This document shows, piece by piece, positions 3,139-35,904 of a stretch of 64,000 bases of DNA (position 1 is the first letter of the stretch; each line of letters opens with the position of its first letter). The notes below the pieces were generated by a model that made no database searches, was not told where the DNA came from, and saw nothing but the letters and a program-made list of their open reading frames with translations. The translations under genes and the position numbers were made by a program. Source of the stretch: an uncultured Planctomycetales bacterium (lineage in GTDB: Bacteria; Omnitrophota; Gorgyraeia; Zapsychrales; Fredricksoniimonadaceae); contig CAZFNI010000007.1 in the NCBI GenBank assembly GCA_964520655.1, positions 6,398 through 70,397 on the forward strand, read 5' to 3'.

Positions 3139-3159
3139 TTTAGACTAGGAAGGTCTAAA
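3139..3159 (+). promoter_or_regulatory. Inverted repeat TTTAGAC-N7-GTCTAAA immediately upstream of the RBS of the second Cys-rich gene. Possible operator or promoter-proximal element.
   Basis: Perfect 7-bp inverted repeat read directly from the sequence, in an AT-rich 185-nt intergenic region, 12-20 nt upstream of AGGAG. Confidence 0.3.
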
Positions 3160-3180
3160 CTTTAAGTGCTAGGAGAAAAA

Positions 3181-6756: not shown

Positions 6757-6760
6757 GCCC

Positions 6761-8566: not shown

Positions 8567-8575
8567 TAAAACGTA

Positions 8576-17505: not shown

Positions 17506-17515
17506 TTTGGCTGAT

Positions 17516-20719: not shown

Positions 20720-23196
20720 CGGTATTAATATCAGTTGGCCTGTCTTTGCTGGCCTCTTTGTTCTTATTCTCGGACCTGTTCTGGTTCCATAACCAGAGCT
20801 TCATGTGGCATCATGATACCGAGATCCCTTTTGAGAATACCTTTAACATCATTTCATTCTTTTCTCAGGGCGGGGTGCAGCTTTTCGACCCTTTCGACGG
20901 TTTTAATTACGCGTATTCCCATTTAAGCAGCGGGTTTTACACTGTAGCCAATGCCATCACCGCATTTATTTATCTATTGTTCTCTCCGTTCTATAGTGAA
21001 CCCGGGCAGGCCTACCATCATTGTTTCAGTGTTGTGTTCCATGCGGTCACGATGCTTTTGCGCACGATCGGCGGGTATTGTCTGCTTAACCGCATGAGAC
21101 TCAACCGTCCGGTCATGGTCATTTCCCTTGTGATCCTCAATACATTTTTGTCGTCGACGATGTATTTTGGATTATTGACGGATAATCTGTATTCCTATTT
21201 CCCGCTCCTGGCGTATTTTATCGTGAGTTATTTCGAGCATTTCCGCGCCAGGGATCTGGCGGCAGCATTCTTGGTGTTTGTCATTTGCGTCGCCAATTCC
21301 CCATTCTTTGCGCTGGGCTATTTTTATGAACCGGTGCATTTTTTGATCTTAAGCGCCGCGTTGATCGGATTGATATTCTATCGGCGCAGCATCAAGTGGC
21401 ATAAGCTTGGCGAACCGATGCTGTGGATCAAGACAGCGGGTGTTCTGCTGCTGGCGGCGCTGATCTTGCTGCCGTCGGGGATGCTGTCAAAGTCCCTGTC
21501 GAAAGATTTTTATGTGGCTAATTCAGGCATTAATGGGACAGAGGGGCGTTTAAAAAGCATATTTAATCCCAAGAAATATTTCTCGCCAAAATCAGAAACA
21601 TTGATCCCCCTTAAGGAGCTTCCGTTCAAGGTCGTCGATACGACCAATGACTGGTGGGAGAAATCGTGGATATTCTGGGGAGCGGGCATCATTGGGTTGG
21701 CGTTCTTTGGTCTGGTTGCCAGTCATCGACGGGAGAAATATATGTTCGGCGCCGCGATGGGGTTGATCGTGCTCTCCAATACCGCGCTTGATCCCTCTTC
21801 TCCGTTGTCGCTGGCGCACTGGATCAATGCCTTAACCAATCCTTTTGCGTTCTTGTTGCGCAGCTATCATATGCCGATCCTGTTGATGCCCTATCTGCTC
21901 TTTGTGCCTGTGGCGTTAGGATTGCAGGCGGTATGGGACCTCTCTGTTCGGATCAAAGGCCATGTGCATTGGTTTAAAAGCATGGTGCTGGTCGTTGGTC
22001 TAGTCCTCTTATTAAAGCTGGCGCTGACTTTCCCGGAACCGGTCAGAAGTTATGCTGCTATTGTTGCCGGTTTGTTCATTGGACTTGCTGTTGTGCTCAT
22101 CGCACCGCTTGCGCCTAAAGCGCGCATGGTCACAGCGGCGGTCTTGATGCTTGTCATCGCCGGTATCGACAGTAACGCATTGTGGAAATATTATGTCCAG
22201 AATCAATACCATGGACGCTATTTCTGTAAGGACGACGGGCGGCACATCAAGCCGCGGATATTCGATGATTTTAAGCAAGAGGTGCCGCTGATCTTGGAAT
22301 ACCAGGACCCGGCCATGATCCCCTGGCGCGAATTCGTGCGTGTTTTCCCCACACAGACCGCGCCGGCCATGCACAGCGAGCAAAATCATTATGGATTGTT
22401 CTACCGGTATCATGCCTTAGAGCGTTTCTTGCTGGAACCCAATATTTACGCGCCGCGGCCTTATGTGTATAAAGATCTCTATCAAGATACGGAGACGATC
22501 CGTCTGCTGGCCCAGGATCCCCGGTCGATATTTCTGGCGTCAGATGTCAATGGCGGTGCCGTGCAGGACCTGGGACGGCATCTCGAGCGTTTTGAACTGG
22601 ATATGCGCCGGGGGAAATTTGTCACAAAAGAGGGTTATTTGCAAGGGCAGTGGAAGCTTCCGGATGGATTTAATCCTTTTGCCGCGACCGGGGTGTTCAC
22701 GTTGGATCAGGACCTGATGAAGGCAGCCGTTGATGGGGAGATCTATACGCCGGTCCAGGGGGCACTGACCGCTTTGCGTCAATTTGATGTGAACAATATC
22801 AGAAAAGGATATCTGACAGCAGCGCTGCCGCGGGGTTTTGTGGTCAAAGATAAACCGTTGCTGTTATTCTATCACCGCAGCAATGAACTGCTGCGGGTGA
22901 GAGAAAATACGCTGGACCGCATGACGTTTGATTTTCTGGCGAGCAGGGCAGGGTATTTAAAGACCAGGATCGCCTTCAATGATCAATGGCGCGTTACTGT
23001 TGACGGCAAAGAAGTTACACCTGTGAAGGTGGACAAATATTTCCTAGGCGTGCCGATCTCCCAAGGACAGCATACGATCACATGGCAGTATGGCGCGGGG
23101 AGCATGTTACGCGTATGGATCATTGTGTCCATGCTGTTGACTTTCCTGGTGTTGGCTGCTGTTTTACGTTTTTCGATCAGAAGTTCTGCCTTTTAG
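20713..23196 (+). CDS. Family B-2: YfhO-like polytopic membrane protein (827 aa).
   Basis: Shares with the B-3/B-4/B-5 paralogs the blocks QGGVQLFDPFDGFNYAYS and HWINALTNPFAFLLRSYHM, plus the C-terminal NDQWRVTVDGKEVTPVKVDKYFLGVPISQGQHTITWQY (YfhO-like). Confidence 0.65.
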   Translation: MLTVLISVGLSLLASLFLFSDLFWFHNQSFMWHHDTEIPFENTFNIISFFSQGGVQLFDPFDGFNYAYSHLSSGFYTVANAITAFIYLLFSPFYSEPGQAYHHCFSVVFHAVTMLLRTIGGYCLLNRMRLNRPVMVISLVILNTFLSSTMYFGLLTDNLYSYFPLLAYFIVSYFEHFRARDLAAAFLVFVICVANSPFFALGYFYEPVHFLILSAALIGLIFYRRSIKWHKLGEPMLWIKTAGVLLLAALILLPSGMLSKSLSKDFYVANSGINGTEGRLKSIFNPKKYFSPKSETLIPLKELPFKVVDTTNDWWEKSWIFWGAGIIGLAFFGLVASHRREKYMFGAAMGLIVLSNTALDPSSPLSLAHWINALTNPFAFLLRSYHMPILLMPYLLFVPVALGLQAVWDLSVRIKGHVHWFKSMVLVVGLVLLLKLALTFPEPVRSYAAIVAGLFIGLAVVLIAPLAPKARMVTAAVLMLVIAGIDSNALWKYYVQNQYHGRYFCKDDGRHIKPRIFDDFKQEVPLILEYQDPAMIPWREFVRVFPTQTAPAMHSEQNHYGLFYRYHALERFLLEPNIYAPRPYVYKDLYQDTETIRLLAQDPRSIFLASDVNGGAVQDLGRHLERFELDMRRGKFVTKEGYLQGQWKLPDGFNPFAATGVFTLDQDLMKAAVDGEIYTPVQGALTALRQFDVNNIRKGYLTAALPRGFVVKDKPLLLFYHRSNELLRVRENTLDRMTFDFLASRAGYLKTRIAFNDQWRVTVDGKEVTPVKVDKYFLGVPISQGQHTITWQYGAGSMLRVWIIVSMLLTFLVLAAVLRFSIRSSAF

Positions 23197-23240
23197 AGAA
23201 AAATTCAAGCAAATTTTTTGAGAATAGGTATAATGCCCCT

Positions 23241-24662
23241 ATGCAACAAACGCATTTTGATTATTGTGTGGTGGGCAGCGGCCCAAGCGGTCTGACCGCG
23301 GCCTATAAGCTTCTTAAAGGGGGCAAAAGCGTCCTGCTCATTGAACGCGATGACCGCATCGGCGGTTTGGCCAAAAGCTATGAATATGACGGCCACATCT
23401 TCGATACCGGCCCCAAACGTTTTCATACTGACGATCCCGTGGTGCTGGACTTCATCCAGGAGATCACTAAAGGCCATATCGCCACCATCGGCCGCTCGAC
23501 CAAAGTTTTTTTCTTAGGCAAATATTTTGAATGGCCCCTGCAGACCAAGGACCTGATCAAAATGCCGGCGGGTGTTTCTTTTAAATGTGCCATCGATTTG
23601 CTGAAAAAACGTCCGATCACCGATAAGGCCTCGTTTCACCAATTCATCAATTCCAAATACGGCGAAACACTCTACGGCGTTTTCTTCAAACCATATACAC
23701 AGAAATTCCTGCGCTGGGATACGGAAGACATCCATTCCGATTGGGCTTCGACAGGCATCAACCGCACGGTCATCGATAAACGCATCAATGCCAATTCACT
23801 ATTGGACCTGTTCCGTTCTTTGCTGCTTCCCGCGAAAGTAGAGACTGAATTCTTATACCCGTTAGAAGGCGGCTTCGGTGGTTTTTATGAACAGATGCTG
23901 GGGCTTTGCCGTCAAATGAAAGGTTTTCACCTGCAGCTATCCGACACGATCGTTCAGCTGAAGGATACTGGAAAGATCTTCGAAGCCCAAACCGCTGCAC
24001 GGCAGAATTTCACGTTCACGGACTTGATATGGACGGGGAATTTAAACGCGTTAAGCGCTGTCGTTGCGCCTAAGAATACGAACGTCAGTTATCTGAATAC
24101 GATCTTTTACAATGTGATCTGTAAAGAAGAGGGCGTCGGCCAGCAGAAAGCACAGTGGATCTACGTCAGCCGTGGGGATAGTTTGATCAGCCGCATCACC
24201 TGCATGAAAGAATTTCTGCCTTATACCTGCCGCGAGGGCTATTACAACATGATCTGTGAGTTGACGGATTCTCAGAAGGTTCCTCATTATTTTAACGACC
24301 CGCAGGCGCATAAAGACGGCATTTTAGATGAGTTGGCAGGGATGAGATTCATCCGCAACAAAAAATATGTAGATGCGGTGCATGTGGAGCCGGTCAAGGA
24401 CACGTATCCGATCTATCACCGCCGCTACAGCCATGATTTTGCCAAAGTCAAGGCGGGCATCGCTCAGTTCTCCAAACGCATCCATTTGCTGGGCCGCTGC
24501 GGTGCGTTCTGGTATAACAATTCCGACCATTCCATCCGTTTTGCCATCGAGACAGCGGACAAACTGCTGGGTGCTCAGAAAAAAGAATTCGATTACCGGG
24601 ATTATTTCGGCGGTCTTTACGGAGCCGGTGCTCATCAGGCGGAAGAAAGCGTCACCACATAA
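23241..24662 (+). CDS. FAD/NAD(P)-binding oxidoreductase (amine-oxidase / UDP-galactopyranose-mutase-like superfamily). The ORF-track upstream extension from 23082 is rejected.
   Basis: Rossmann dinucleotide motif DYCVVGSGPSGLTAAYKLLKGGKSVLLIERDDRIGG at the N-terminus. The ATG at 23241 follows the upstream stop at 23196. Confidence 0.6.
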   Translation: MQQTHFDYCVVGSGPSGLTAAYKLLKGGKSVLLIERDDRIGGLAKSYEYDGHIFDTGPKRFHTDDPVVLDFIQEITKGHIATIGRSTKVFFLGKYFEWPLQTKDLIKMPAGVSFKCAIDLLKKRPITDKASFHQFINSKYGETLYGVFFKPYTQKFLRWDTEDIHSDWASTGINRTVIDKRINANSLLDLFRSLLLPAKVETEFLYPLEGGFGGFYEQMLGLCRQMKGFHLQLSDTIVQLKDTGKIFEAQTAARQNFTFTDLIWTGNLNALSAVVAPKNTNVSYLNTIFYNVICKEEGVGQQKAQWIYVSRGDSLISRITCMKEFLPYTCREGYYNMICELTDSQKVPHYFNDPQAHKDGILDELAGMRFIRNKKYVDAVHVEPVKDTYPIYHRRYSHDFAKVKAGIAQFSKRIHLLGRCGAFWYNNSDHSIRFAIETADKLLGAQKKEFDYRDYFGGLYGAGAHQAEESVTT

Positions 24663-24675
24663 GCCGGAGGTTGTG

Positions 24676-25452
24676 ATGAAGAACATTCTTGTCGTCGGCG
24701 GATCCAGCGGGATCGGCGCGGCGACGGTCCAATTGCTTAAACAGCAGGGTTTCCATGTCCAAATAGGGGATATCCGCAAGCCGGGATCGGATACGGATTT
24801 TGTTACGCTGGACATAAGCAGCCCCTCGGGCTATGCCAATGCCCTGGCGCTTTTTAAATCCTCCCAGAAACGTTTCGACGCGCTTGTCATCACCGCGGCC
24901 ATGCACAGCGCATACCCATCTGAATATGTCAGCGACCAGATAATCGACAAAGTCCTGGCGGTCAATTTGACCGGACACATCAAATTCGTGCGGGACATGA
25001 TACCGCTGCTTAATCCCAACAGTCGCATCATTGCTGTTTCCTCGATCGCGGCCGGCATCGGCATCCCCATGGAGTCCCTTTACAGTGCGTCCAAAGCGGG
25101 TCTGGAAATGTTCTATGAGTCTCTTTCCGTCGAGATCGCATACCGCGATATCAGCTGTACGATCATCCAGCCGGGGAACGTGAATACGGGTTTTAATGAG
25201 ACCCATAATGATTTTCCCGGGACAGGCCAGGCACAAGTGGACGGCCCTTACCAGACGATCCTCAAACGCATTGACAGCAGGCTGGGCATGCCGCCTGCGG
25301 ATGTTGCGAACGTGATCGCTTTGGCCGTCAATGCGGCACGCCCCAGATTTTCCTATATCGTCGGACAGAATGCGCTCAAGGCCCACTGGGCTAAACGGAT
25401 CCTGGGCCGCGACCGGGCGCTGGTCGTCATGAAAAAATTTTTCGGTCTATAA
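24676..25452 (+). CDS. Short-chain dehydrogenase/reductase (SDR).
   Basis: MKNILVVGGSSGIGAATV (TGxxxGxG-type) and the catalytic YSASKAG (YxxxK) motif. The ORF-track upstream extension from 24373 is rejected in favour of the ATG at 24676. Confidence 0.75.
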   Translation: MKNILVVGGSSGIGAATVQLLKQQGFHVQIGDIRKPGSDTDFVTLDISSPSGYANALALFKSSQKRFDALVITAAMHSAYPSEYVSDQIIDKVLAVNLTGHIKFVRDMIPLLNPNSRIIAVSSIAAGIGIPMESLYSASKAGLEMFYESLSVEIAYRDISCTIIQPGNVNTGFNETHNDFPGTGQAQVDGPYQTILKRIDSRLGMPPADVANVIALAVNAARPRFSYIVGQNALKAHWAKRILGRDRALVVMKKFFGL

Positions 25453-25459
25453 TCTTCCT

Positions 25460-27340
25460 ATGTGCGGGATCATCACCCATTTAAGTCTGGACAACAGCAG
25501 CCGTATTTCTCCTGATACATGCCGGCAGTTAAATGATCTGCTGATCCATCGCGGTCCCGATGATTCCGGTATCTTCTTAAGCGGCAATGTGGCCATGGGC
25601 ATGCGCCGGCTGGCCATCGTGGACTTAGAAGGCGGTCGTCAGCCGATCTCATCGAACGATGGGCGCTACACCATCGTTTTTAACGGGGAGATCTACGATC
25701 ATATGCTGCTGCGCCGTGAACTCTCGGCGCGGGGCAGGACATTTAAGCAGCACAGCGACACCGAGACGATCCTCAATGCCTACATCACCTGGGGAGCGGA
25801 TTGCCTGCGACACTTAAACGGCATGTTCGCGTTTAGCATCTGGGACGACACGGATAAGACTTTGTTCATTGCCCGCGACCGCGTCGGGATGAAGCCGCTT
25901 TACTACGCCCAGGATGCGAAACGCATCTTCTTCTCGTCCGAATTGACCCCGATCGTCCGCAGCCGTTTTTTCGACCTTCAATATAATCTCAAGGCGATCA
26001 GCGACTATTTGAGTTACTGGTATATCTGCGAGCCGGACACGATCTTTTTAAATGTGCATCAGCTTCCTCCGGGGCATTATGCCACCATCAAGGATGGGCG
26101 CATGACGGTCACCCGGTACTGGAGTATTCCCGCTAAGCCTGAGGCGGATGTGCCCTATGCCCAAAGCGTGGAACAGCTGCATGGTTTATTGACCGACGCG
26201 GTCAGGTCCCATTTGGTCGCGGATGTGCCCTTGGGCACATTCTTAAGCGGCGGTATTGATTCGGGCGTGGTGACAGCTTTGGCTAAAAGGCAAGCTGCCG
26301 GGCGATTATGTTCTTTCGGCATCGGTTTCAAAGATAGAAGTTACGATGAGACATCGCTGGCCAAAATGACGGCGGAGAAGCACGGGGTTGATCTGAACGT
26401 CCATATCATGGAGGACATATCGCCCGAACTTCTCGAGGAGATCATCGGCGCATTTGATGAACCGCTGGGGAATGCCAGTTATGTGCCGACCTATCTTTTA
26501 GCCAGGGCCGCTCGCGCCAAACTGAAAGTCGTACTGACGGGCGACGGAGGGGATGAGCTTTTCGGCGGTTATCCGACTTATCAGGCGCCTTACTACCAGA
26601 ATATGTGGCAGCGGACGCCGCGCTTCTTCAAGCAGATCATTAAGCAGTATGTCGCCGGGATGCGGGTGTCGCATCAACGCATTTCCCTTGATTATCGTCT
26701 CAAGCAGCTGATGCAGGGGATAGACCAGGATTATCAGCGCGCGCATATTTCCTGGCGTCAGGTAGCATCGATGGCCGTGCAGCAGCGTTTATGGAGATCT
26801 CATGTTTACGAGAAACTGCGGGGCCATGATCCTTTCATTGTCGCAGAGCGTTATTTCAGCCAGGCCAAAGAACTTTCGGTCATCAATCAGCTCATGTATG
26901 TGGACATCAATACGTTCTTGTTAAATGACCATTTGCGCAAAGTGGACCGCATGACCATGGCCCATGGATTGGAAGCCCGCATCCCGTTCTTGGATCACCG
27001 GATCGTGGAACTCGCCATGCGCATGCCGGCTCAGCATAAGATCAACCTCAGAAGCACAAAAAGAGTGCTCAAATCAGTCGCTGCTCAGTACTTGCCGAAA
27101 CAAGTCATCATGGGCAAGAAGAAGGGGCTGACATCGCCCATTGCCGGCTGGATCCATGGCCCGTTAAAAGAATATTTCAGCGATGTATTAACAGGGGGTA
27201 TTGCCAGCGAATTGTTTGAGTCCAAGGAGATCCGGGTACTGGTCACGGAACACATGGAAAGAAAAAAAGATCACAGCCGTATCTTATGGGCATTATTGAC
27301 GTTGCAGGTCTGGCATCGCAGGATCAGTGTTGGCCCATAA
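25460..27340 (+). CDS. asnB: Asparagine synthase (glutamine-hydrolysing) family amidotransferase.
   Basis: The N-terminal MCGI nucleophile and the PP-loop SGGIDSG (LSGGIDSGVVTALA). 626 aa, typical of AsnB/WbpS-like enzymes found in glycan loci. Confidence 0.85.
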   Translation: MCGIITHLSLDNSSRISPDTCRQLNDLLIHRGPDDSGIFLSGNVAMGMRRLAIVDLEGGRQPISSNDGRYTIVFNGEIYDHMLLRRELSARGRTFKQHSDTETILNAYITWGADCLRHLNGMFAFSIWDDTDKTLFIARDRVGMKPLYYAQDAKRIFFSSELTPIVRSRFFDLQYNLKAISDYLSYWYICEPDTIFLNVHQLPPGHYATIKDGRMTVTRYWSIPAKPEADVPYAQSVEQLHGLLTDAVRSHLVADVPLGTFLSGGIDSGVVTALAKRQAAGRLCSFGIGFKDRSYDETSLAKMTAEKHGVDLNVHIMEDISPELLEEIIGAFDEPLGNASYVPTYLLARAARAKLKVVLTGDGGDELFGGYPTYQAPYYQNMWQRTPRFFKQIIKQYVAGMRVSHQRISLDYRLKQLMQGIDQDYQRAHISWRQVASMAVQQRLWRSHVYEKLRGHDPFIVAERYFSQAKELSVINQLMYVDINTFLLNDHLRKVDRMTMAHGLEARIPFLDHRIVELAMRMPAQHKINLRSTKRVLKSVAAQYLPKQVIMGKKKGLTSPIAGWIHGPLKEYFSDVLTGGIASELFESKEIRVLVTEHMERKKDHSRILWALLTLQVWHRRISVGP

Positions 27341-27410
27341 CCATAACGGAATAGGTGAATTTTCTGTTAAATCATGATATTCTGACGTCATTGCATTGAA
27401 AGAACGCGCG

Positions 27411-27752
27411 ATGGAAAAGATCATTCTGGGAATAGTCCAAACGATATTGTGCCCGCAATTCGCGGCTGATGCTAACCATCATCACGTGACGCATACGGCG
27501 GAAGTGCTTTACCGCAAGATCATGGCCATGCCGTTGTTGCTGCGTCTGGCCATGTCCGTGCTGTTATATGTTTTTAACGGATACGGGGTTTTGCTGGGCG
27601 GACATTTGTTTGAGAACCATGTCCCCCAAAACAAAGCTAAACAGTTAAGCCAATGGCAGAACAGCCCGATCGCCCCTTGCCGTGAAGCAATGTCTTTTTT
27701 TTATAAAATGACTTTTTTTATTTATTTCTCCTTATGCCCAAAGATCGATTAA
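27411..27752 (+). CDS. Hypothetical small membrane protein (~113 aa). The ORF-track start at 27396 is TTG.
   Basis: One hydrophobic helix MAMPLLLRLAMSVLLYVFNGYGVLLGG. Its end overlaps the GMC oxidoreductase start by 19 nt. No recognisable domain. Confidence 0.3.
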   Translation: MEKIILGIVQTILCPQFAADANHHHVTHTAEVLYRKIMAMPLLLRLAMSVLLYVFNGYGVLLGGHLFENHVPQNKAKQLSQWQNSPIAPCREAMSFFYKMTFFIYFSLCPKID

Positions 27753-29065
27753 GTTGTGACGTTCTAGTCATTGGTTCCGGCCCCGGCGGCGCTATGACAG
27801 CCATGCTGTTGGCCCAGGCGGGACGGGATGTGATCCTTTTGGAAGAGGGGCAGCATATCCCCATCGACCAGGTTCCTGCGTATTCCCTGGATGAGATGGA
27901 CCTTAAATACCGCCACGGCGGGTTAACGGTCAGCGCGGGAGATCCCAAGGTCACTTACATAGAAGGCCGCTGCGTCGGAGGGGCAAGCGAGATCAATGCC
28001 GGGCTTTATCATCGCCCGCTGCCAAAAACATTGGATGCCTGGGGGGCGGAGCACCGTTTAAAGGGATTTTCTTCCCAGCTGATGGAGCCGTTCTTTTTAG
28101 CCAATGAAGACATGATCAAGGTGGTGCCGTTTCAGGGTGAATTGTCGATCGCTTCGCGTTTGATCCGCGACGGGGCTCAAAAGCTGGGCTGGCAGTCGGG
28201 GGAGGTGCCCAGGTTATGGGATTACGCGAAGGGATGTAAGTGCTCGATGAGCGAAGCGGTGATCCCGCAATTTATCAAAGCCAAAGGACGGCTGATCACG
28301 CAGGCCAGGGCGGGACGTTTGCATGTGTCCAATAGAAAAGCCTTTCAGGTCAATACCCGTTTATTGAATATCCGTTTTAACCATGTGTTTATCTGCGGCG
28401 GCGCGATACAAACGCCGCTCTTGCTGCGGCGAAGCGGCATCAAGAAGAATATCGGCAATAATTTACGTATGCATCCGGCGGTGCGGGCGGTCGTTGAATT
28501 TGACCGCGATATCAATGATCCAAGTGAGGGCGTGCCGGTCTATCAGGTCAGTGAATTCAAACCGGAGATCTCATTAGGGGGTTCTTACAGCGGGCTGCCG
28601 CATTTAGGGCTGTGGCTCTCCGGGCGAAGCGACCTAAAAGCGCATTTAAAGGCCTGGAAGCGACACGCGATCTTTTACGCCCTGATCATGGCTTCTACGC
28701 CTGGGAAGGTGCGTGCTATTCCTTTTGTCGACGAGCCGATTGTCAGCCTGCCCATGGTCAAGGCTGATTGGGAGCTGATGGAGCAGGGGCTTTCGCGTCT
28801 GGAGGAATTATTCAAGGCGGCAGGGGCGGTGCATATCCACCGCAGCATCAAGCCCGAACTATCAACGATACATTTGTTCTGTTCCTGTCCCATGGGGGAG
28901 GACTCACCGACCGCTGCGGTCGATTCTTACGGCCGGCTGCACGGGTATGACAATATTTATTTGAACGACGCCAGCATTCTACCGGCAACGCCCGGGGTCA
29001 ATCCCCAGGCAACCATCATGGCGCTGGCCCGCCGCAACGTGGAGCATTTTATAAAATACTCATGA
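27734..29065 (+). CDS. GMC-family FAD-dependent oxidoreductase.
   Basis: N-terminal CDVLVIGSGPGGAMTAMLLAQAGRDVILLEEG (FAD-binding GxGxxG). C-terminal YLNDASILPATPGVNPQATIMALA is the characteristic GMC C-terminal motif. Confidence 0.75.
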   Translation: MPKDRLSCDVLVIGSGPGGAMTAMLLAQAGRDVILLEEGQHIPIDQVPAYSLDEMDLKYRHGGLTVSAGDPKVTYIEGRCVGGASEINAGLYHRPLPKTLDAWGAEHRLKGFSSQLMEPFFLANEDMIKVVPFQGELSIASRLIRDGAQKLGWQSGEVPRLWDYAKGCKCSMSEAVIPQFIKAKGRLITQARAGRLHVSNRKAFQVNTRLLNIRFNHVFICGGAIQTPLLLRRSGIKKNIGNNLRMHPAVRAVVEFDRDINDPSEGVPVYQVSEFKPEISLGGSYSGLPHLGLWLSGRSDLKAHLKAWKRHAIFYALIMASTPGKVRAIPFVDEPIVSLPMVKADWELMEQGLSRLEELFKAAGAVHIHRSIKPELSTIHLFCSCPMGEDSPTAAVDSYGRLHGYDNIYLNDASILPATPGVNPQATIMALARRNVEHFIKYS

Positions 29066-31116
29066 GCCGATTATCTTTGAGCCCCGCGTACCGCAATGTC
29101 CTGATGCTGGCCGTTCTAAGCTTCCTGCAGGCGCTGCAGCTGCTGATCTGGGCGGCTGCTGCAAGTTCCCTGATCCCCTATGCCAGGACCGATTTTGTCA
29201 CAAAGATCTTTCCGGTCTATTTGCCCGAGGTAAGGCCTGAGCGGGAGATGCTCTTGTTCCGTTTGTTTGTGGTGATGGCCGTCGCTATCATGGCGGCGTG
29301 GATCGTCCGGCACAAGGATGAGGTCGACTCCCGAGAACTTCGACGGGAATATGGCGCTTATACGGTCTTTACGGCAACGGTCATTGTCATACAGCTGATC
29401 TTTATTTTTAAACTTATTGTTTTTGGGGGCCCCCTGTGGGCCAGAGTGATGATGTGGCTTTGCATGGTCGGAGCTTTGTTGGCGCATGTGTTCTGGCCGG
29501 AACTGCGGAAAATATTATCTTCCTGGCAGGGGAAGATCATATCCAGCGATGATGTTGGATCCCCGCATTTGTGGGATGCTTCATTTATCCTTTTGCTGTT
29601 TGTTCTGCTATATCCAAATAATCTAGATAATGTACTGGGCCGCATATTTGTTCATGATCAGTTCTATCATTTAGACAGCATGCTCATGATGCCGGGCTTC
29701 GCGCATCTCAAAGGTCTGCTGTTAAACCGGGATATCACCAGCGAATACAGCGCCGGGTTGCCTGTAATGCTGTCCAATGTGCTGAATTTCTTCCATGGGT
29801 TTGATTATCCGGGGGCGGTAAGGCTGTTGATCATGTTGAACCTGGTTTATTACGCGGCGTTGTACCTGTTCATTGCCCGCTGGCTTAATTCCAGGCCTTT
29901 GGGGGTGTTGGGCACATTGCTTGCGGTCAAATGGCAAATGTTCCATTGGGGGGTGGCGCCATTGGTCTGGCAATTCCCCAGTGCCACCGCTTTAAGGCAT
30001 TTGCCGGACATTGTGTTTTATTTTACTTTCTGGCAGTATTTAAGAACACTTAAGACGCGCTGGTTGATCATTGCGGTGATCTCTGTCGGTGTCACGTTGT
30101 TCTGGATGATGGATGTCGGGGTCTATTTGCTGGCAGCGCTTTGCGCGGGCATGCTTTTATTCAATTGGCGGCAGGCTTTCGCAGCGGCGGCTCTGGCGCT
30201 TGGCACGGCTTTTGTGTTGCTGTGGGCTGGGCAGCCCCAGGCGGTTGTGTCGGCGGATTATTGGAAGAACCAGTTTGAATTCGCCTCATTGTTCCTCAAC
30301 GGGTGGGGGGCATTACCGATGACGGAAGGGTTAAAGGATAAGCAGTTCTTTGCTTTTATCATTGGATTTGTTATTCCCGTCGGTTATGCCGCCAGTTTAG
30401 TCTACAGCGCCCAACGTTTCTGGGCAGATAAAAACCGAAAAGACCATTTGTTCGTCGTTGTGTTGTGCCTGTACGGCCTTGGCCTGTACCATTATTTTAT
30501 CCATCGTTCTGGTGTCACCAGTTATTACGCGGTGTGTGTTCCGCTTGTTTTGCTTGTGTGTTTTTGGGGGCAGCAGCTGTTGTCCCGGCTGCCTGCCGAT
30601 AAGCGGCGGCTGGCGGCGGTCGTGGCCGCAAGCCTGATGCTGCCGATCTTGGCTACGAGCTATCTGTTCACGTATTATCCCAATATCCTTAATCTTGCCG
30701 GCAATGACTGGAAGATCGAGGCCAAATATTATCGCGAACACTTTGACCTGAAAAAAGATGCGCAAATGATCGCGTCATTGTCCGCTCCTGGCGAGAGGGT
30801 GGCCATCATCAGTAGTTTTGAGACCAGGATCCTGATGCAGGCCGACCGTCCGCCGCTGTTTTACTATTCACCCATGGTCGAATCTTCCTTGATGGATGAT
30901 CCGCGATCACGGTTGACCTATCTACACACTCACAAACGGCTGCGGGAGACGATCGCGCAGATCGAGGAACGCAGGCCGTCGTATGTTTTTATCGAGGCAA
31001 AGATGCTCAATGTGCAGGGCCAGGAAGCATTGTCAGGTCTGTTAAGCGCGGTGATGAACAATTACACACCGTTTAAACAAGGGGTTTACTTGATCGCCTT
31101 TAAGAGGACGAAATGA
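29062..31116 (+). CDS. Family C-1: uncharacterised polytopic membrane protein (684 aa) with a conserved C-terminal soluble domain.
   Basis: Shares with five paralogs the blocks FVHDQFYHLD, YGLGLYHYF, YYPNILN and a C-terminal SSFETRILMQADRPPLFYY ... YVFIE. No match to any family I recognise. Confidence 0.7.
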   Translation: MSRLSLSPAYRNVLMLAVLSFLQALQLLIWAAAASSLIPYARTDFVTKIFPVYLPEVRPEREMLLFRLFVVMAVAIMAAWIVRHKDEVDSRELRREYGAYTVFTATVIVIQLIFIFKLIVFGGPLWARVMMWLCMVGALLAHVFWPELRKILSSWQGKIISSDDVGSPHLWDASFILLLFVLLYPNNLDNVLGRIFVHDQFYHLDSMLMMPGFAHLKGLLLNRDITSEYSAGLPVMLSNVLNFFHGFDYPGAVRLLIMLNLVYYAALYLFIARWLNSRPLGVLGTLLAVKWQMFHWGVAPLVWQFPSATALRHLPDIVFYFTFWQYLRTLKTRWLIIAVISVGVTLFWMMDVGVYLLAALCAGMLLFNWRQAFAAAALALGTAFVLLWAGQPQAVVSADYWKNQFEFASLFLNGWGALPMTEGLKDKQFFAFIIGFVIPVGYAASLVYSAQRFWADKNRKDHLFVVVLCLYGLGLYHYFIHRSGVTSYYAVCVPLVLLVCFWGQQLLSRLPADKRRLAAVVAASLMLPILATSYLFTYYPNILNLAGNDWKIEAKYYREHFDLKKDAQMIASLSAPGERVAIISSFETRILMQADRPPLFYYSPMVESSLMDDPRSRLTYLHTHKRLRETIAQIEERRPSYVFIEAKMLNVQGQEALSGLLSAVMNNYTPFKQGVYLIAFKRTK

Positions 31117-33701
31117 AGAACCAGTGCGCAAGACGTGATATTGGCATCGCCTTTATCCTGACCATGGCGGCTTATGCGCTGCTTTATCCTGATCAGTTCG
31201 TGTTCGGCAGCCGCCGTTTTTTGCAAGGGCAGGATACGGAGATACATTTAGAGAGCCTATTTACGCTGGTATCCCATGTTTTCCAGGGCGGGGTGCAGCT
31301 GTACGACCGTTTCGACGGGTTCAATAATGTATACACCCTCATGACCGCTGGCTTATATTCAGTTCTGGATATGATCTTAGCCGGCATATATGTATTGTTA
31401 AGCCCTTTAAGCGATCATTCCGGAAGTTTCCTGCACCAGGTCTATTCCGTCGGGTATTACGCCGGAGCTGCGGTGATACGCATCATGGGGGGCTATTTAT
31501 TGCTGGGCAAGTTCACGCGAAACAGGGCGGCCCGCGTCATCGCGCTGGTGCTGGCGAATCTGTTCCTCTCGTCGTTTTTGATCAACCGCGGCATGCAGGT
31601 CAATAACTTGTATAGTTATTTGCCGCTGCTTTTATATTTTGTCCTTAATTTTTTTGAGAACTTTGATCTAAAAGATGCGTGTCTCGCCGCGCTGGTCATG
31701 GCATTGGCGGTGAGCAATTCGCCATTCTTGGGCTTAAGTTATTTTTATTTGATCGTCCATTTTTTTATGATCAGCTGTGCAGCCGTCTATGCGTATTTTG
31801 CGTTAAAAGATGGCATCAAAGAAAGAACGCTAAGCTGGGAACCAGCTCAATGGGGATATGCCGCCGCTGTTGCAGCGGTCATTGTTATCCTGATCCTGCC
31901 GTACGCGCTGATGCAGTCGGATTTCAAAAATGATTTCTTCATCGCTAATTCAGGTGTTAACGGCACCGTTGGCCGTCTAAAGGCGGCGGGGGTGGACGCG
32001 TATTTTTCTTTCCCCGGTCGTTCCTATGTGAACCCTGGTGAGTTCTTGACCAAAAGTGTTGATTTCACGCTGACCCGATGGGGATCGACATGGATGTTCT
32101 TAGGTGTCGGTATGCTCTTTCTGATCTTAAGCGGACTGGTGCTGTCCCGTCAGAGGTTAAAGGGAGTGATCGTTTGCCTGACGGTCTTTGTGCTGAGCTT
32201 AAATATTCCAGCCAGCAAGGACAGTGTGCCCGGCTTTGCCCACTGGATCAATGTGTTGACAAATCCTTTCCATTTTTTGATCCGCAGCGTCCATATGTCG
32301 ACGCTGTTATGGTATCTCACCTTGACGCCGTTAGTTGCGCTGGGGATAGAGGCGTTGACCGCTTTGGCTGCTGGCCGCCGCGAGGCGGTCCATGCCGGTC
32401 GTCTTTATACATTCCTGGGATTCTTTGCCGGATCGTGTGTGCTGACAGCGTGTTTATCGCCGGGGCGGGTGCAGGGATATGTGCTGCTGCAGGGGGCGCT
32501 TATTGTCGCGACCATGCTTTTACTCTCCACACAGAAGAAGAAAATGAAATGGGCGGCCGCGCTGCTGGGGATCATTTTGATCGCCGGAGAGCTGGCAGCT
32601 CTTAAGAATTACGTGGACGAAGACCTGGATGTGCAGGTGCATTTAAAGCCGCAGGTTTACAGCGGCGTGCGTTCTGCTGAACCAATTTTATTAGATCATC
32701 AAAACCCCAAGGTCTTTCCCAACCGGGCGTATTATAAGAATAGCGCGCAACCCGTCTTTCCGCCGGCCTATACCTATCAGAACACTTACGGCGCCTATTA
32801 CAGTCATTATCCATTGATGGAGCGTTTTTTGCGTCCTCCTTCGCTGTATGAACCAAGGCCGCTGGTATTTAAAGGTTTCGCCCAAGATGTCGCGAACGCG
32901 GCGTATTTGCAGAAAGTCGGCCTGATGATGTTCTTTGTGCCGTATGCCATGGATGATTCGCGGGTGCGCATGGAAGACTTGTTGTCCGCGGGGCTTAATG
33001 GGCAGGTGGTGCTATTGCCCGCGGGTTCGCCTGGGATGGTTCCGCCCGATCAGGCGATCGTACCCCAGCCGATGCCAGTGGTCAGGACCCAGGAATTCGC
33101 ATTAGATCCCAAAAAAGCCAAACGTATACAGAAGGGGACTAATATCGAGTGGCATTTGACGCTTCCAGGCGGCTTCCCTTCTTATGTGACATCGACGGTG
33201 TTCACTCAAGATCAAGATGATCTTCAGCTATTGATGGGAGAGAGGGCATTAACACAGGTTCAAGGCGGGTTGGTTGTTCCCTACAGCTTTGATGTACAGA
33301 ATATCAAGGAGGGCAAGGCGGTGGTCCTGCTGCCGCAAGGCATTGATCCAGCATCGTCAGGGCTTAAGCTGGTGTACAAAAGATCAGACGGTATTAAGGA
33401 GATCTGGAAGAATACCCATGATGCCTGGGGTTTGACGATCGAAGCTCCCGTGGATGGATGGGTGGTGTTCCACTATCCGTATGATCCAAAATGGAAGATC
33501 ATTGTCGACGGAAGAACAGAAGCGCTTTACAAGGCGGATCATTATTATTGCGCTGTGCGTGTATCCAAAGGCGAACATCGGCTTTTACTCCAGTATTGGC
33601 CGGGGACGATCATACGGCCGTTGTTATTGTTATCAGCACTGCTTAGCATCGGTGTATTTTTTTATGTATTTAAAGAAGGGTATCGGCGTGAGTGTCCATA
33701 G
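31113..33701 (+). CDS. Family B-3: YfhO-like polytopic membrane protein (862 aa).
   Basis: FQGGVQLYDRFDGFNNVY and HWINVLTNPFHFLIRSVHM. C-terminal DPKWKIIVDGRTEALYKADHYYCAVRVSKGEHRLLLQYWP. Confidence 0.65.
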   Translation: MKNQCARRDIGIAFILTMAAYALLYPDQFVFGSRRFLQGQDTEIHLESLFTLVSHVFQGGVQLYDRFDGFNNVYTLMTAGLYSVLDMILAGIYVLLSPLSDHSGSFLHQVYSVGYYAGAAVIRIMGGYLLLGKFTRNRAARVIALVLANLFLSSFLINRGMQVNNLYSYLPLLLYFVLNFFENFDLKDACLAALVMALAVSNSPFLGLSYFYLIVHFFMISCAAVYAYFALKDGIKERTLSWEPAQWGYAAAVAAVIVILILPYALMQSDFKNDFFIANSGVNGTVGRLKAAGVDAYFSFPGRSYVNPGEFLTKSVDFTLTRWGSTWMFLGVGMLFLILSGLVLSRQRLKGVIVCLTVFVLSLNIPASKDSVPGFAHWINVLTNPFHFLIRSVHMSTLLWYLTLTPLVALGIEALTALAAGRREAVHAGRLYTFLGFFAGSCVLTACLSPGRVQGYVLLQGALIVATMLLLSTQKKKMKWAAALLGIILIAGELAALKNYVDEDLDVQVHLKPQVYSGVRSAEPILLDHQNPKVFPNRAYYKNSAQPVFPPAYTYQNTYGAYYSHYPLMERFLRPPSLYEPRPLVFKGFAQDVANAAYLQKVGLMMFFVPYAMDDSRVRMEDLLSAGLNGQVVLLPAGSPGMVPPDQAIVPQPMPVVRTQEFALDPKKAKRIQKGTNIEWHLTLPGGFPSYVTSTVFTQDQDDLQLLMGERALTQVQGGLVVPYSFDVQNIKEGKAVVLLPQGIDPASSGLKLVYKRSDGIKEIWKNTHDAWGLTIEAPVDGWVVFHYPYDPKWKIIVDGRTEALYKADHYYCAVRVSKGEHRLLLQYWPGTIIRPLLLLSALLSIGVFFYVFKEGYRRECP

Positions 33702-35904
33702 AAAGATCTTTTATTCGTCCCTGTTAGGTATCCTGACAGCCCTTCAGGCGACAGTCCTGTTAGCCAGGCTCTTGTCCTTGAGAGTTCCGTCCTCGGCATT
33801 GACTGCCGATGTGGTCGGCGAGTGGCAATCCCTGCTGCGCCCGGAGTGGGAGACGGTCATTTACCGCGGATTTGTTTTTTTTGCTATTACTGGAGCATTT
33901 CTTTGGGTGAATATCCTTCGATTTATCCCGCGTTTACCCCGCTTTGCGGCCGCGGAGCTGGTCGTGACCGTCGCGATCCTGGGGACATGTTTCAAAGCGG
34001 CGGTCTATGCCGGCCATCCGCAGCTGGCAGGCAATTGGCAGATCATTCTTCTGGCCTCAGCGGTGCTTCTTAAAGTTTTCTGGCCGTGGGTGGATCGTCA
34101 GACAGAGGCGTTGGCGGAATTTGCTCTCAATAAGAGCAACAGGAAATACATCGATCTGCTGCTGACGGTCCTGATGCCCCTGGTGATCGTTTTGATCATC
34201 GATGTCCCCAATGTCCAGGGCGCTGTGGCGCGATTTTTTGTCGGCGAGCAATTCCATCATAACGACAGTTTTATTTATGGGCCGGTCCTCGCTTATGCCA
34301 GCGGCGCGAAGCTTGATGTGGATGTCATCAGCCAGTACGGGGTGGGTGTCGGCGCTATTTTTGGGACTTTGTCCTCGATGATCGGGGGCGTCAGTTATGA
34401 AAATGGGCTGACGCTGATGGTCTGGGGCGCGATCATCTATTATGTGCTGCTCTTCTTCCTGCTAAGGTCCTGGATCAACAATACAGTGCTGGCCTGTGCA
34501 GGGGTTTTTCTGGCGCTTAAATTCCAAATGTTCAATGCGGGCGTTTATCCGTTCGCTTTCACCTATGGCAGCGCGACAGTGCTGCGCGCCTGGTTTGATA
34601 TTGTTGTGCTTTGGTCCTTATGGGCGCACAGCCGCTGTCCCAGGATGCGCTGGCTAATATTGGCCGCCGCCGCATGCGGAGCGCAGTTATTCTATATCCC
34701 CTCCGACGGGGCTTATGTGTCGGCGATGCTGGCGTTCTATATCTTTGTCTGGGCCTGGCTTAACGGGGGGGTCAGAAAACTCTGGATCCTGGTCGTGCTG
34801 CTGGCTGCGCCGGCAATAATGCTGCTGTTGATGGGGATATTCCTGGGACCATCGGTCGGGCAAAAGATCTTTTGGGAGAACCTCAAAGAATTCGTCAGCT
34901 ATTTCCTTAACGGTTTTGGGCTGACGCCGATCGACAGCGGTTTGATCGAGCGCAAGTTCCTGGCATCCCTGATGGGCTTTGTGCTGCCGGTCCTTTATGT
35001 ACTGACGTTGTTGTTCACCGGCGCGCTTTTGCTGCTGCGCAAGATCCATCTGCGCAACCTTTTTGCCTGTACGCTCAGCGTTTACGGGTTATGTCTCTAC
35101 CATTACTACGTGGCCCGATCAGGCCCGTCGAGCTATTATGTGGTTTCTGTTCCTTTTGTGATGCTCTTGATATTTTGGATCAGCAAAGCCGGCGCGCTGT
35201 TCCCGGAAAATCTCCGCCGTATGACAAGTCCGGCGGTTCTTCTGGTCAGCGTGTTGATGCTGCTGCTTAATCAGAATTTTATTGCCTATCCTAATCGCTT
35301 TAACGTCTCGCGAAATCCTTTGACCGATCCCGCTGTTGCCCAGCCGCTGGATTCCGGCCTGCCGTATTTCTATCATTTATATAGAGGCTACAATGATCAA
35401 CTGAAAGTCCCGCTCAATGCTTTAGGTCAGCAGGATGAGGGACTCTATGCCGAATCGGATTTCCGCTCAGATGACCAGCTTTTGTCCTATTATCGCGCGG
35501 AATCGGATTTTTCTGTTGATGCGGCATTGATCGCCCGTTTGACAAAACCTGATGAGCCGGCGGCATTGATCAGCAGTTTTGAGATCAAAATACTCATCGA
35601 TGCCAAACGCCGCCCTTACTTTTATTATTTCCCTCTGGCAATTTCTCATCCGCTGCGTTCCCGGACGCTTGTGCGCAGCAGCATTTACACGAAGGACCAG
35701 CTGACAAAGGTGCTTGAGAAATTAGACCGGGACAAGCCGCCGTATATTTTCGTCGAACGCGTTTTGCTGCAGCGTCCGCTGCCGGAAGTATTTTATTTTT
35801 ATTATTCCAGCATGCTGTATTTAGTCGACCATGTGATGGCCAACTATGAGGTCGCCCAACAGGGGAAATATATTGTTGCCATGCGTTATAAAGGAGCCCG
35901 ATAG
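33688..35904 (+). CDS. Family C-2 paralog. The GTG at 33688 (or the ATG at 33664) is the preferred start; the ORF-track extension to 33454 overlaps the upstream gene by 250 nt and is rejected.
   Basis: FVGEQFHHNDSF, YGLCLYHYY, AYPNRFNVSRNP, ISSFEIKILIDAKRRPYFYYFP ... YIFVERVLL ... GKYIVAMRYK. Confidence 0.65.
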   Translation: MSVHRKIFYSSLLGILTALQATVLLARLLSLRVPSSALTADVVGEWQSLLRPEWETVIYRGFVFFAITGAFLWVNILRFIPRLPRFAAAELVVTVAILGTCFKAAVYAGHPQLAGNWQIILLASAVLLKVFWPWVDRQTEALAEFALNKSNRKYIDLLLTVLMPLVIVLIIDVPNVQGAVARFFVGEQFHHNDSFIYGPVLAYASGAKLDVDVISQYGVGVGAIFGTLSSMIGGVSYENGLTLMVWGAIIYYVLLFFLLRSWINNTVLACAGVFLALKFQMFNAGVYPFAFTYGSATVLRAWFDIVVLWSLWAHSRCPRMRWLILAAAACGAQLFYIPSDGAYVSAMLAFYIFVWAWLNGGVRKLWILVVLLAAPAIMLLLMGIFLGPSVGQKIFWENLKEFVSYFLNGFGLTPIDSGLIERKFLASLMGFVLPVLYVLTLLFTGALLLLRKIHLRNLFACTLSVYGLCLYHYYVARSGPSSYYVVSVPFVMLLIFWISKAGALFPENLRRMTSPAVLLVSVLMLLLNQNFIAYPNRFNVSRNPLTDPAVAQPLDSGLPYFYHLYRGYNDQLKVPLNALGQQDEGLYAESDFRSDDQLLSYYRAESDFSVDAALIARLTKPDEPAALISSFEIKILIDAKRRPYFYYFPLAISHPLRSRTLVRSSIYTKDQLTKVLEKLDRDKPPYIFVERVLLQRPLPEVFYFYYSSMLYLVDHVMANYEVAQQGKYIVAMRYKGAR

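Follow-up and report, generated by a model that had tools for sequence, protein, structure and literature searches.

An unannotated family of predicted GT-C-fold membrane proteins encoded in tandem arrays in Omnitrophota

Results

The window analyzed here is a 64,000-nucleotide stretch of contig CAZFNI010000007.1 (assembly GCA_964520655.1) from an uncultured bacterium of the phylum Omnitrophota. Between positions 27734 and 50445, successive genes overlap or abut by 0–40 nt, and this run contains a set of paralogues, termed family C, whose first copy (29062..31116, + strand; 684 aa, ATG start) served as our query and is predicted to consist of an N-terminal module of four transmembrane (TM) helices, an 11-TM GT-C core, and a periplasmic C-terminal domain. 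On the same strand follow copy 2 (33664..35904; 746 aa counted from M71), copy 3 (39895..42372; 825 aa, with an additional insert behind the N-terminal module), copy 4 (45284..47068; 594 aa, core and C-terminal domain only, beginning at the equivalent of TM1), a truncated paralogue (47061..48308; 415 aa, N-terminal module and part of the core), and copy 5 (48298..50445; 715 aa), which is the final gene of the array. All-versus-all BLASTP aligned the query with 33454..35904, 39895..42372, 45284..47068, and 48298..50445 at 26–35% identity over 500–740 residues (E 1e-56 to 1e-128), a similarity that, on these alignments, is far beyond chance. The link to the truncated paralogue was weaker (E 4e-8), and this protein matched the family profile with an hhalign probability of 99.9%, with large deletions. 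The start at 33454, which belongs to the longest open reading frame of copy 2, is probably wrong; we preferred M71 (33664) because it matches the paralogues as well as the gene call in a close relative that is 94–96% identical. Differing gene calls between the window and this relative had also raised cassette replacement as an explanation, which was rejected given that the two loci align collinearly across 17.9 kb with 96% DNA identity, the differences being start-site or frameshift calls.

A previous reading of the window made from the sequence alone (hereafter the sequence-only reading) had counted six copies that share all ordered motif blocks and an N-terminal 4-TM module. The blocks hold for the five full-length copies and fail for 47061..48308, where neither the [DE]xxxHxD block nor the middle helices nor any of the C-terminal domain is present; since the acidic motif of the first periplasmic loop and the C-terminal domain are missing, this paralogue is probably non-catalytic. 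It has a counterpart at 53% identity in the related locus L027 and is present in L033 too. The module is likewise missing from copy 4, where it lies on a separate, overlapping open reading frame (44850..45323, + strand; 157 aa, ending in FWSEI) that represents the split-off N-terminal portion of that copy. An assembly frameshift was rejected as the cause of the split, as the same arrangement of 154/157 aa plus 588 aa recurs in L027 and L044 and the length of stand-alone homologues is constant (100%, 90%, and 51% identity to 44850..45323, each 157 aa long). The module is an optional part of the family that also occurs as a free-standing gene.

Upstream, the stop codon of a GMC-family FAD oxidoreductase gene (27734..29065, + strand) overlaps the query start by 4 nt, and the block to which it belongs (FAD oxidase, SDR, AsnB, small ORF, GMC) is kept in L002, L003, L011, and L042. 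Downstream, the query stop codon shares 4 nt (ATGA) with the start of a YfhO-like gene of family B (31113..33701, + strand), in which the Pfam YfhO match covers the C-terminal part only; further family B copies lie at 20713..23196, 35905..38502, and 42359..44860. Of 41 related loci, 17 have family B and family C genes interleaved, and in many arrays family C occurs with no family B at all (e.g., L004, L012, L014, L030, L035). A class I SAM methyltransferase gene (38397..39902, + strand) lies inside the array, and its position is occupied in L016 by a GT2-methyltransferase fusion. Convergent with the array end is a small GT2 glycosyltransferase gene (50876..51598, − strand; 240 aa; Pfam Glycos_transf_2, 1.4e-21), whose nearest NCBIfam models are PgfS (8.7e-20), PpgS (1e-13), AglJ, ArnC, and Dol-P-hexose transferase, all below cut-offs. 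This gene is a candidate polyprenyl-phosphate sugar synthase and donor supplier, a name that states closest relatives only, since the matches fall far below the NCBIfam equivalog cut-offs. Similar small GT2 genes, with polyprenyl- or dolichyl-phosphate sugar synthases as their nearest named relatives, lie within or beside the arrays of about 18 loci, the window included, and the split family C gene of L044 is overlapped by a fusion of an NDP-sugar dehydratase with a GT2 (AglJ, 5.9e-30). No flippase of the GtrA, MATE, or SMR type was found among the remaining open reading frames of the window. The neighbors also include FkbM, a membrane protein with a sulfatase fold (LtaS/EptA-like), and an LPG_synthase_C protein.

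Beyond the window, family C comprises about 1,564 cluster representatives (50%-identity clusters). Every member that could be located came from an Omnitrophota metagenome-assembled genome and stood in a tandem array of 2–7 copies, and the family appears to be restricted to this phylum.

The AlphaFold2 (AF2) model of the query (pLDDT 88.5, pTM 0.87) contains 15 TM helices, four accessory and 11 in the core, with a 65-residue loop behind core TM1. The accessory module (29062..29490, + strand; residues 1–143) has helices at 8–36, 59–87, 91–120, and 125–143 and conserved polar residues at Q26, E60-R61, and K117, and is directly followed by a cytoplasmic FWPEL motif (residues 144–148). The membrane core, TM1–TM11, spans 29563..30654 (+ strand; residues 168–531), and the C-terminal alpha/beta domain, predicted to be periplasmic, spans 30655..31113 (+ strand; residues 532–684) and contains the YPN, ISSFE..IL..A.R.P.FYY, and YVFIE blocks. 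An N-in topology that places the first external loop (EL1) in the periplasm is predicted, and is backed by the positive-inside rule, the density of K+R across 207 members being 0.212 in predicted cytoplasmic loops versus 0.059 in periplasmic loops.

EL1, the proposed catalytic loop (29614..29811, + strand; residues 185–250), forms two short helices in the model (188–199 and 202–216) and contains D199-x3-H203-x-D205, D224, S227, and Y229. Among the 207 members, position 199 is D or E in 94%, and H203, D205, and D224 are conserved in 90%, 91%, and 90%, respectively; the predicted periplasmic side also carries R312 (98%), D316 (97%), Y471/G472 (96%), P540 (99%), and R596 (97%). Near-invariant core residues comprise R312/D316 at the periplasmic end of TM4; Y471-G472-L473, H477, and R482-S483 at the end of TM9 and in EL5; and W401/E406/G414/G416/P419 in EL4. 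Orthologues are most alike in EL2, EL4, and EL5 (0.85, 0.73, and 0.86), the regions in which paralogues differ most, a pattern that fits specialization of the paralogues.

These data bear out the sequence-only reading in that the proteins cohere as one family, polytopic in the membrane and ending in a conserved soluble domain of ~150 aa. The HxxD and YGLxLYHY blocks, whose orientation it had left to be mapped, are predicted to be periplasmic, like all conserved blocks except FWxE. Its motif strings were approximate: the motifs that are robust across the family are [DE]199-x3-H203-x-D205, Y471-G-L, Y539-P-N, and [IL]SSFE..IL..A.R.P.F[YF], but the query reads FVHDQFYHLD rather than F-x-G-[ED]-x-x-H, YPNILNLAGND with no SR[ND]P, and GVYLIAFKR rather than AMKR.

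Searches for known families were uniformly empty. All six copies returned 0 matches in Pfam and 0 in NCBIfam at E ≤ 1, ten long relatives gave no usable match in either, and the N-terminal module or C-terminal domain alone yielded nothing beyond noise at E ≤ 10 (best E 0.022, well short of the gathering cut-off), the N-terminal modules on their own matching neither GtrA (PF04138) nor SMR at this threshold. Two family C profiles found no match among PDB sequences. There was no Pfam or NCBIfam profile match to ArnT/PMT (GT83/GT39; PF02366, PF13231), no match to STT3 (GT66, PF02516) in Pfam at E ≤ 1 or among PDB sequences searched with the family profiles, and no Pfam match to YfhO (PF09586); the hhalign probability of a relation to the YfhO-like family B was 0.1%, i.e., no relation. 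Neither family D (533..2980) nor a spermine-synthase-like protein (10380..12743) bore a meaningful relation to family C. The WWDYG motif, with which the C-terminal domain of STT3/AglB/PglB begins, was searched as WWD[YWFN]G and was present in 0 of 207 members, and membership in the oligosaccharyltransferases was rejected on this absence and that of an STT3 Pfam match. Database relatives were without exception annotated as hypothetical proteins with no Pfam domains (74 of 74), and a word-indexed search with broad profiles for annotated remote members recovered only four more unnamed proteins, divergent membrane cores of family C. In sum, Pfam, NCBIfam, PDB-sequence, hhalign, and broad-profile searches gave no significant sequence link to any characterized GT-C family, and nothing specific describing family C was found in the literature on Omnitrophota or in GT-C surveys. 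As no copy or sub-domain matched Pfam, NCBIfam, or PDB sequences, the proposal that no curated sequence family covers these proteins was right, and at the level of sequence family C is undescribed. The result that the sequence-only reading had named as its refutation, a confident Pfam match along most of the protein, did not appear.

Structure comparison led elsewhere. All 17 Foldseek matches in the PDB at E ≤ 1e-3 were GT-C enzymes (STT3A/B, DPY19, ArnT, AglB, PglB). The TM-scores were modest (0.31–0.43; 19 matches, E below 0.002) because the 4-TM module and the C-terminal domain lack counterparts in most of these matches; the C-terminal domain alone came structurally closest, though weakly, to those of AglB and STT3. 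The predicted fold is unambiguously GT-C, the superfamily of ArnT, PMT, STT3/PglB, ALG, and Aft/Emb. The sequence-only reading had implied that family C is unrelated to ArnT, PMT, and YfhO-type enzymes, an implication that the predicted structure does not support, as it places family C in a superfamily shared with ArnT and PMT. Family C is therefore new as a sequence family within a known enzyme class, and is neither a new kind of membrane protein nor a new biochemical principle. GT-CA enzymes have two helices in the first luminal loop, with the catalytic base in the first (PMC13503287), and a two-helix first external loop with a conserved acidic residue is present in family C, in EL1. Judged by loop position only, D/E199 or D205 may be the counterpart of the known catalytic Asp/Glu, and R312/R482/H477 may be counterparts of the phosphate ligands.

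Discussion

Among the glycans that GT-C enzymes build are some of the most important extracytoplasmic ones (N-glycans, the mycobacterial cell wall, and modifications of lipid A and O-antigen), and new GT-C families are difficult to detect by sequence. The Omnitrophota are a mostly uncultured phylum whose members are often ultra-small and host-dependent. We consider it about 75% probable that family C, unannotated as a sequence family, consists of integral-membrane glycosyltransferases with a GT-C fold (GT-CA class) that use polyprenyl-phosphate sugars to build a surface glycan. The results above show the family, its predicted fold and topology, its conservation pattern, and its gene context; that the proteins are catalysts, that their donor is lipid-linked, what single residues do, and what the acceptor is we infer as follows. 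On the cytoplasmic face, a small DPM1/ArnC/PgfS-like GT2 enzyme would make a polyprenyl-phosphate-linked sugar that is then flipped to the periplasm, where a groove of the 11-TM core at the periplasmic membrane interface would bind it and the near-invariant basic or polar residues R312, K290, H295, H477, and R482 would hold the donor phosphate. The EL1 acidic residue (D/E199, with H203 and D205) would activate an acceptor hydroxyl, and EL2, EL4, EL5, and the C-terminal alpha/beta domain would bind the acceptor and set specificity. The tandem paralogues would differ in the sugar or linkage that each attaches. Acting with the YfhO-like enzymes encoded between them, and probably with family A, they would build up or decorate a glycan or glycoprotein on the Omnitrophota cell surface.

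Large arrays of specialized paralogues, next to YfhO-like enzymes and putative synthases of lipid-linked sugars, suggest that the surface carries an elaborate glycan or glycoprotein, which may matter in cell-cell attachment. Under this assignment, some 15 proteins per genome now listed as “hypothetical membrane proteins” become testable glycosyltransferase candidates, and the motif set [DE]xxxHxD, RxxxD, YGL, YPN, and SSFE is available for a new Pfam/CAZy family.

A more far-reaching version, which we regard as unlikely, is that family C founds a new CAZy-level, Omnitrophota-specific GT-C family whose N-terminal module is a subunit dedicated to handling the lipid donor and whose arrays are a phylum-specific extracytoplasmic glycan assembly line. 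The separable module, which at least three genomes encode independently as a 157-aa gene, might then serve as a flippase or carrier-lipid dock built into the enzyme, in place of the missing GtrA/MATE component, and the arrays, in which family C, family A, and YfhO-like genes add up to about 15 GT-C-type genes in 50 kb, could rival mycobacterial arabinogalactan/LAM synthesis in complexity.

An oligosaccharyltransferase-like activity of the STT3/AglB/PglB (GT66) type, in which a glycan assembled beforehand would pass en bloc from its polyprenyl-diphosphate carrier to proteins, e.g., the large Omnitrophota surface proteins, seems to us unlikely: family C differs from these enzymes in the absence of the WWDYG motif and of an STT3 match and in having 15 TM helices versus 13, and its many tandem paralogues suggest stepwise sugar addition rather than en bloc transfer. 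We give distinctly low odds to a GT-C-like core with another chemistry or role, such as a glycan polymerase or ligase (Wzy/WaaL/SEDS-like, GT-CB class), a non-sugar transferase, or a lipid-carrier transporter, to which the extra 4-TM module, with its conserved polar residues and no known counterpart, and the neighboring LtaS/EptA-like and LPG_synthase_C proteins would lend themselves. Lower still do we place a GT-C-fold protein that has lost catalysis and acts as a lipid-binding or scaffolding subunit for its YfhO-like neighbors, in the manner of PIG-U/GAB1 in the GPI transamidase; full-length copies retain near-invariant acidic and basic residues at GT-C active-site positions, orthologue-specific conservation of the periplasmic loops suits substrate recognition, and the many arrays with family C alone would leave such a scaffold with no family B enzyme to serve. 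A categorically new family with a new fold, which is the sequence-only reading in its strongest form and toward which the empty sequence searches might point, is effectively refuted by the GT-C structural matches of the predicted model and is barely credible.

Considered as GT-C glycosyltransferases, family C proteins have among their closest known systems the ER-lumenal Dol-P-Man mannosyltransferases ALG3/ALG9/ALG12 (GT58/GT22) and PimE (GT87), at 9–11% identity and with no sequence-profile link; unlike these, they carry a 4-TM module before TM1 and their own alpha/beta C-terminal domain, and are bacterial and apparently confined to one phylum. They differ from ArnT (GT83) and PMT (GT39) in having no PF02366/PF13231 match, PMT DE motif context, or MIR domains, and in their own C-terminal domain. 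The mycobacterial Emb/Aft/Mpt set for arabinogalactan and LAM assembly shows no sequence relationship to family C and belongs to another phylum, whereas the family C host has a diderm envelope of the PVC group; Emb/AftD enzymes have carbohydrate-binding modules where family C has a small alpha/beta domain. A precedent is offered by GT136 (Citrobacter ORF12), a GT-C enzyme without similarity to existing GT families that was recognized through its AlphaFold fold and the context of a polyprenyl-phosphate sugar synthase (PMC11127046), and by other recently founded GT-C families and the three-component Gtr-type systems, with the difference that GT136 is biochemically validated, whereas family C is known from sequence and predicted fold, with no flippase partner found in the window. 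Family B (YfhO/PgfM1-PgfM2, PF09586) stands apart from family C in the profile comparisons given above, but both are polytopic, of the broad GT-C type, and interleaved in a shared operon-like unit.

Paralogues and annotation status

An ORF survey of the 64-kb window revealed a near-continuous series of large ORFs on the same strand, among them the query (29062..31116, product 684 aa; residue numbers refer to it). In an all-vs-all BLASTP of the window ORFs, 33454..35904, 39895..42372, 45284..47068 and 48298..50445 matched the query as paralogues (E 1e-56 to 1e-128; 26-35% identity across most of the length), and 47061..48308 was more weakly linked to this group, hereafter family C. The sequence-only reading had described six copies with ordered motif blocks; a MAFFT alignment and a copy-by-copy regex search upheld the order, but the complete block set was found in five copies only, and the motif strings proved approximate, with the query deviating in three. 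The truncated paralogue 47061..48308 (+, 415 aa; hhalign probability 99.9%, with large deletions) comprises the N-terminal four-transmembrane (4-TM) module (N-module) and some helices of the core, and lacks the acidic first-loop motif, several middle helices and the entire C-terminal domain (C-domain). Because a counterpart is conserved at 53% identity in the genome carrying locus L027 and is also present in L033, the truncated copy has probably been kept as a non-catalytic partner rather than being a recently formed pseudogene. Longest-ORF starts probably lie too far upstream for several window genes: 33664 is a likelier start than 33454, giving 746 aa and leaving 33454..33663 doubtful, and the ORFs at 23082 and 24373 encode 526 and 359 aa here vs 473 and 258 aa in the orthologue calls of L042 (GCA_041910255.1).

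The proposal that the family is undescribed was borne out, as none of the six copies matched Pfam or NCBIfam at E<=1. When the N-module and the C-domain were scanned separately at E<=10, these databases returned noise only (best E 0.022, well under the gathering cut-off), and the family profiles matched none of the PDB sequences. All 70 close database relatives, as well as four remote relatives from a broad-profile search, are unnamed or "hypothetical protein" and without Pfam domains, and scans of ten long relatives gave no result. When 1.84 billion cluster representatives were searched exhaustively with a profile, 1,564 scored as members at E<=1e-3; 796 of these passed E<=1e-10 and 428 passed E<=1e-30. 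Given the empty Pfam, NCBIfam and PDB-sequence searches and the 1,564 members, family C is a real, sizeable, uncurated family.

Predicted fold, topology and conserved residues

The AlphaFold2 model of the query was confident (pLDDT 88.5, pTM 0.87, 56-sequence alignment), and all 17 of its Foldseek matches in the PDB at E<=1e-3 were GT-C glycosyltransferases (STT3A/B, DPY19, ArnT, AglB, PglB), followed by ALG12, ALG3, Pmt4, ALG6 and Emb. Because every match was GT-C and no single GT-C family was prominent, the predicted model places the query in the GT-C (GT-CA) fold superfamily, outside all its described sequence families. The sequence-only reading, which had set the family apart from known GT-C types including ArnT, thus holds for sequence families but not for the predicted fold. 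What is new is the unannotated sequence family; the enzyme superfamily containing it is known. The recent GT-C families GT136, TMEM260 and TMTC were, like family C, recognised from fold alone. Family C stands out by its separable 4-TM N-module, its own C-domain, the large tandem arrays and a distribution apparently confined to one phylum, and we regard it as useful and moderately interesting to specialists, not as startling.

The model contains 15 TM helices, arranged as an accessory 4-TM N-module (residues 8-143), a cytoplasmic linker with FWPEL at its start, an 11-TM core (168-531) and a C-terminal alpha/beta domain (532-684). An N-in orientation is strongly supported by the K+R density across 207 family members, 0.212 in predicted cytoplasmic loops vs 0.059 in periplasmic loops. 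Mapped onto this topology, the residues near-invariant across the family are all predicted to be periplasmic, save structural glycines and aromatics within TM helices. They comprise D/E199 (94%), H203 (90%), D205 (91%), D224 and Y229 in the first external loop; K290, Q292, F294, H295 and P300 in external loop 2 (EL2); R312 (98%) and D316 (97%) at the periplasmic end of TM4; W401, E406 and G414 in EL4; Y471-G472-L473, H477, R482 and S483 in TM9/EL5; Y539-P540-N541 directly after the last TM; and S584-S585-F586-E587, R596, P598 and F600-Y601 in the C-domain. Two short helices (188-199 and 202-216) are modelled in the first loop, with D/E199 ending the first and D205 beginning the second. GT-CA enzymes are described as carrying an N-terminal seven-TM conserved module and, in the first luminal loop, two helices, the first bearing the catalytic base, and as binding the donor phosphate through Arg/His of later loops (PMC13503287); judged by position in the predicted model, family C appears to match this description residue for residue. 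Conservation among query orthologues is highest in EL2, EL4 and EL5 (0.85, 0.73 and 0.86), which are also the most divergent regions between paralogues, a pattern expected if each paralogue had its own substrate specificity on a common catalytic scaffold.

A separable N-terminal module

The paralogue 45284..47068 (+, 594 aa; core and C-domain) lacks the N-module, which is supplied by an ORF overlapping it in a different frame (44850..45323, +, 157 aa, ending FWSEI). The same arrangement occurs in L027 (6914..7378, 154 aa, and 7366..9132, 588 aa, the core 74% identical) and L044 (6001..6474, 157 aa, and 6453..8219, 588 aa); an assembly error is ruled out, since the split recurs in three genomes. 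Stand-alone N-module homologues at 100%, 90% and 51% identity are all 157 aa long, and about one-tenth of the family representatives listed in the profile search begin at the core. The conserved polar residues of the module (Q26, P59-E60-R61, K117) are predicted to lie at the periplasmic interface.

Proposed function and donor supply

From the family, fold, topology, conservation pattern and gene context we infer, with a probability of roughly three in four, that family C proteins are GT-C enzymes moving a sugar from a polyprenyl-phosphate donor onto a surface glycan or glycoprotein. A DPM1/ArnC/PgfS-like GT2 would make the polyprenyl-phosphate sugar, which, once flipped to the periplasm, would dock at the core's periplasmic membrane interface. 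There its phosphate would be held by R312, K290, H295, H477 and R482, the acceptor hydroxyl would be activated by D/E199 with H203 and D205, and the acceptor would be chosen by EL2, EL4, EL5 and the C-domain. The tandem paralogues may work sequentially or in parallel, alongside the YfhO-like enzymes, on the surface glycan or glycoprotein. En bloc protein glycosylation of the OST type is improbable, as the WWDYG motif is missing. Some other chemistry or transport is a slimmer prospect still, closely followed by a non-catalytic PIG-U-like scaffold, a role plausible for the truncated copy only. A truly new fold is very hard to credit, contradicted by the GT-C structural matches of the predicted model.

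For the sugar-transfer reading, a candidate donor source lies within or beside the arrays at about 18 loci, in the form of small GT2 genes (~235-248 aa; in the window 50876..51598, -). Their nearest named relatives are the polyprenyl/dolichyl-phosphate sugar synthases PgfS, PpgS, ArnC, AglJ and Dol-P-hexose transferase, all with scores far under the equivalog cut-offs, and the split family C gene of L044 overlaps a gene that fuses an NDP-sugar dehydratase to a GT2 (AglJ 5.9e-30). By analogy, these genes would be the partner that is expected to make the donor of a GT-C enzyme (compare PMC11127046). The 64-kb window yielded no flippase candidate. The array methyltransferase of L016 (5906..7471) is a GT2-methyltransferase fusion with an ArnC-like N-terminus (2.3e-23), and its window counterpart 38397..39902, at the same array position, retains a vestigial GT2 signal only (E 0.003).

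Further neighbours in the window encode FkbM and class I methyltransferases, an AsnB-type amidotransferase, an FAD oxidase and SDR pair, an SGNH-like esterase and a sulfatase-fold (LtaS/EptA-like) membrane protein, a set typical for glycan modification. A conserved upstream block (23082..29065, +) runs from an FAD amine-oxidase-like gene through SDR, AsnB-type amidotransferase and a small ORF (113-118 aa) to a GMC oxidoreductase, and directly precedes query orthologues in four related genomes (L002, L003, L011, L042). The pairing of an FAD oxidase with an SDR brings to mind DprE1/DprE2, by which a lipid-linked sugar is epimerised.

Distribution and array layout

A scan of 185,579 species-representative genomes for the family motifs found 40 loci, all in Candidatus Omnitrophota MAGs or in third-party "uncultured Planctomycetales" MAGs with the same arrays (L003, L006, L007, L012, L015, L018, L019, L021, L023-L027, L030-L032, L035, L036, L038 and L040), and named database relatives were from Omnitrophota only. 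Since the scan relied on family motifs, distant members may exist outside Omnitrophota. Either the "uncultured Planctomycetales" label is imprecise, or family C reaches beyond Omnitrophota within the PVC group.

Tandem same-strand copies (2-7 per locus) occur at 33 of 41 loci, and YfhO-like (family B) genes are interleaved with them at 17 of 41; the arrays share a conserved downstream boundary of LPG_synthase_C, a chorismate-binding enzyme and then aminotransferase IV. Window genes across 27734-50445 abut or overlap by 0-40 nt, the sole larger figure being 106 nt at 38397, where the longest-ORF TTG start is probably too early (the L042 counterpart has 467 aa). The query overlaps by ATGA both the GMC oxidoreductase upstream and the YfhO-like gene downstream. 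L042 is the closest relative, collinear with the window over 17.9 kb at 96% DNA identity, and carries a 2.3-kb insertion (1789..4136; AAA_14/DUF4143 ATPase and HNH endonuclease) absent from the window at ~23182..23199.

Other families in the window

Four tandem paralogues of ~600 aa (family A; 4930..6756, 6761..8566, 8576..10387 and 12695..14566, +), 37-44% identical, had no Pfam or NCBIfam match. By hhalign they aligned with the family C core at a probability of 64% (E 6.6e-5) and with the C-domain at 60% (E 8.8e-5), and hmmsearch gave E 1.4e-5 over ~340 residues against a target set of only 38 sequences. This moderate remote signal suggests, short of proof, that families A and C are distant relatives with the same architecture, and family A is probably another unannotated GT-C family. 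No relation to family C was detected for the YfhO-like family B. Five YfhO-like proteins, at 20713..23196, 31113..33701, 35905..38502, 42359..44860 and 17507..19570 (+), match Pfam YfhO in the last 50-90 residues only. Genes of families C and B alternate (C-B, C-B, C-B) with overlapping stop and start codons. Among the five, 17507..19570 also weakly resembles PgfM1/PgfM2, which are enzymes of protein glycosylation in Streptococcus.

The ORFs 533..2980 (815 aa) and 3166..4887 (573 aa), both +, share 43% identity across their first ~350 residues and had neither a Pfam or NCBIfam match nor a detectable relation to family C. Downstream of the array, 56005..57462 (+, 485 aa) carries an HTTM (vitamin-K-dependent gamma-carboxylase-like) membrane domain. 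The 787-aa product of 10380..12743 (+) has a central spermine/spermidine-synthase-like domain, and its stretch DDKPFFFY weakly matches the C-domain motif R-x-P-F-F-Y-Y of family C (hhalign probability 18%).
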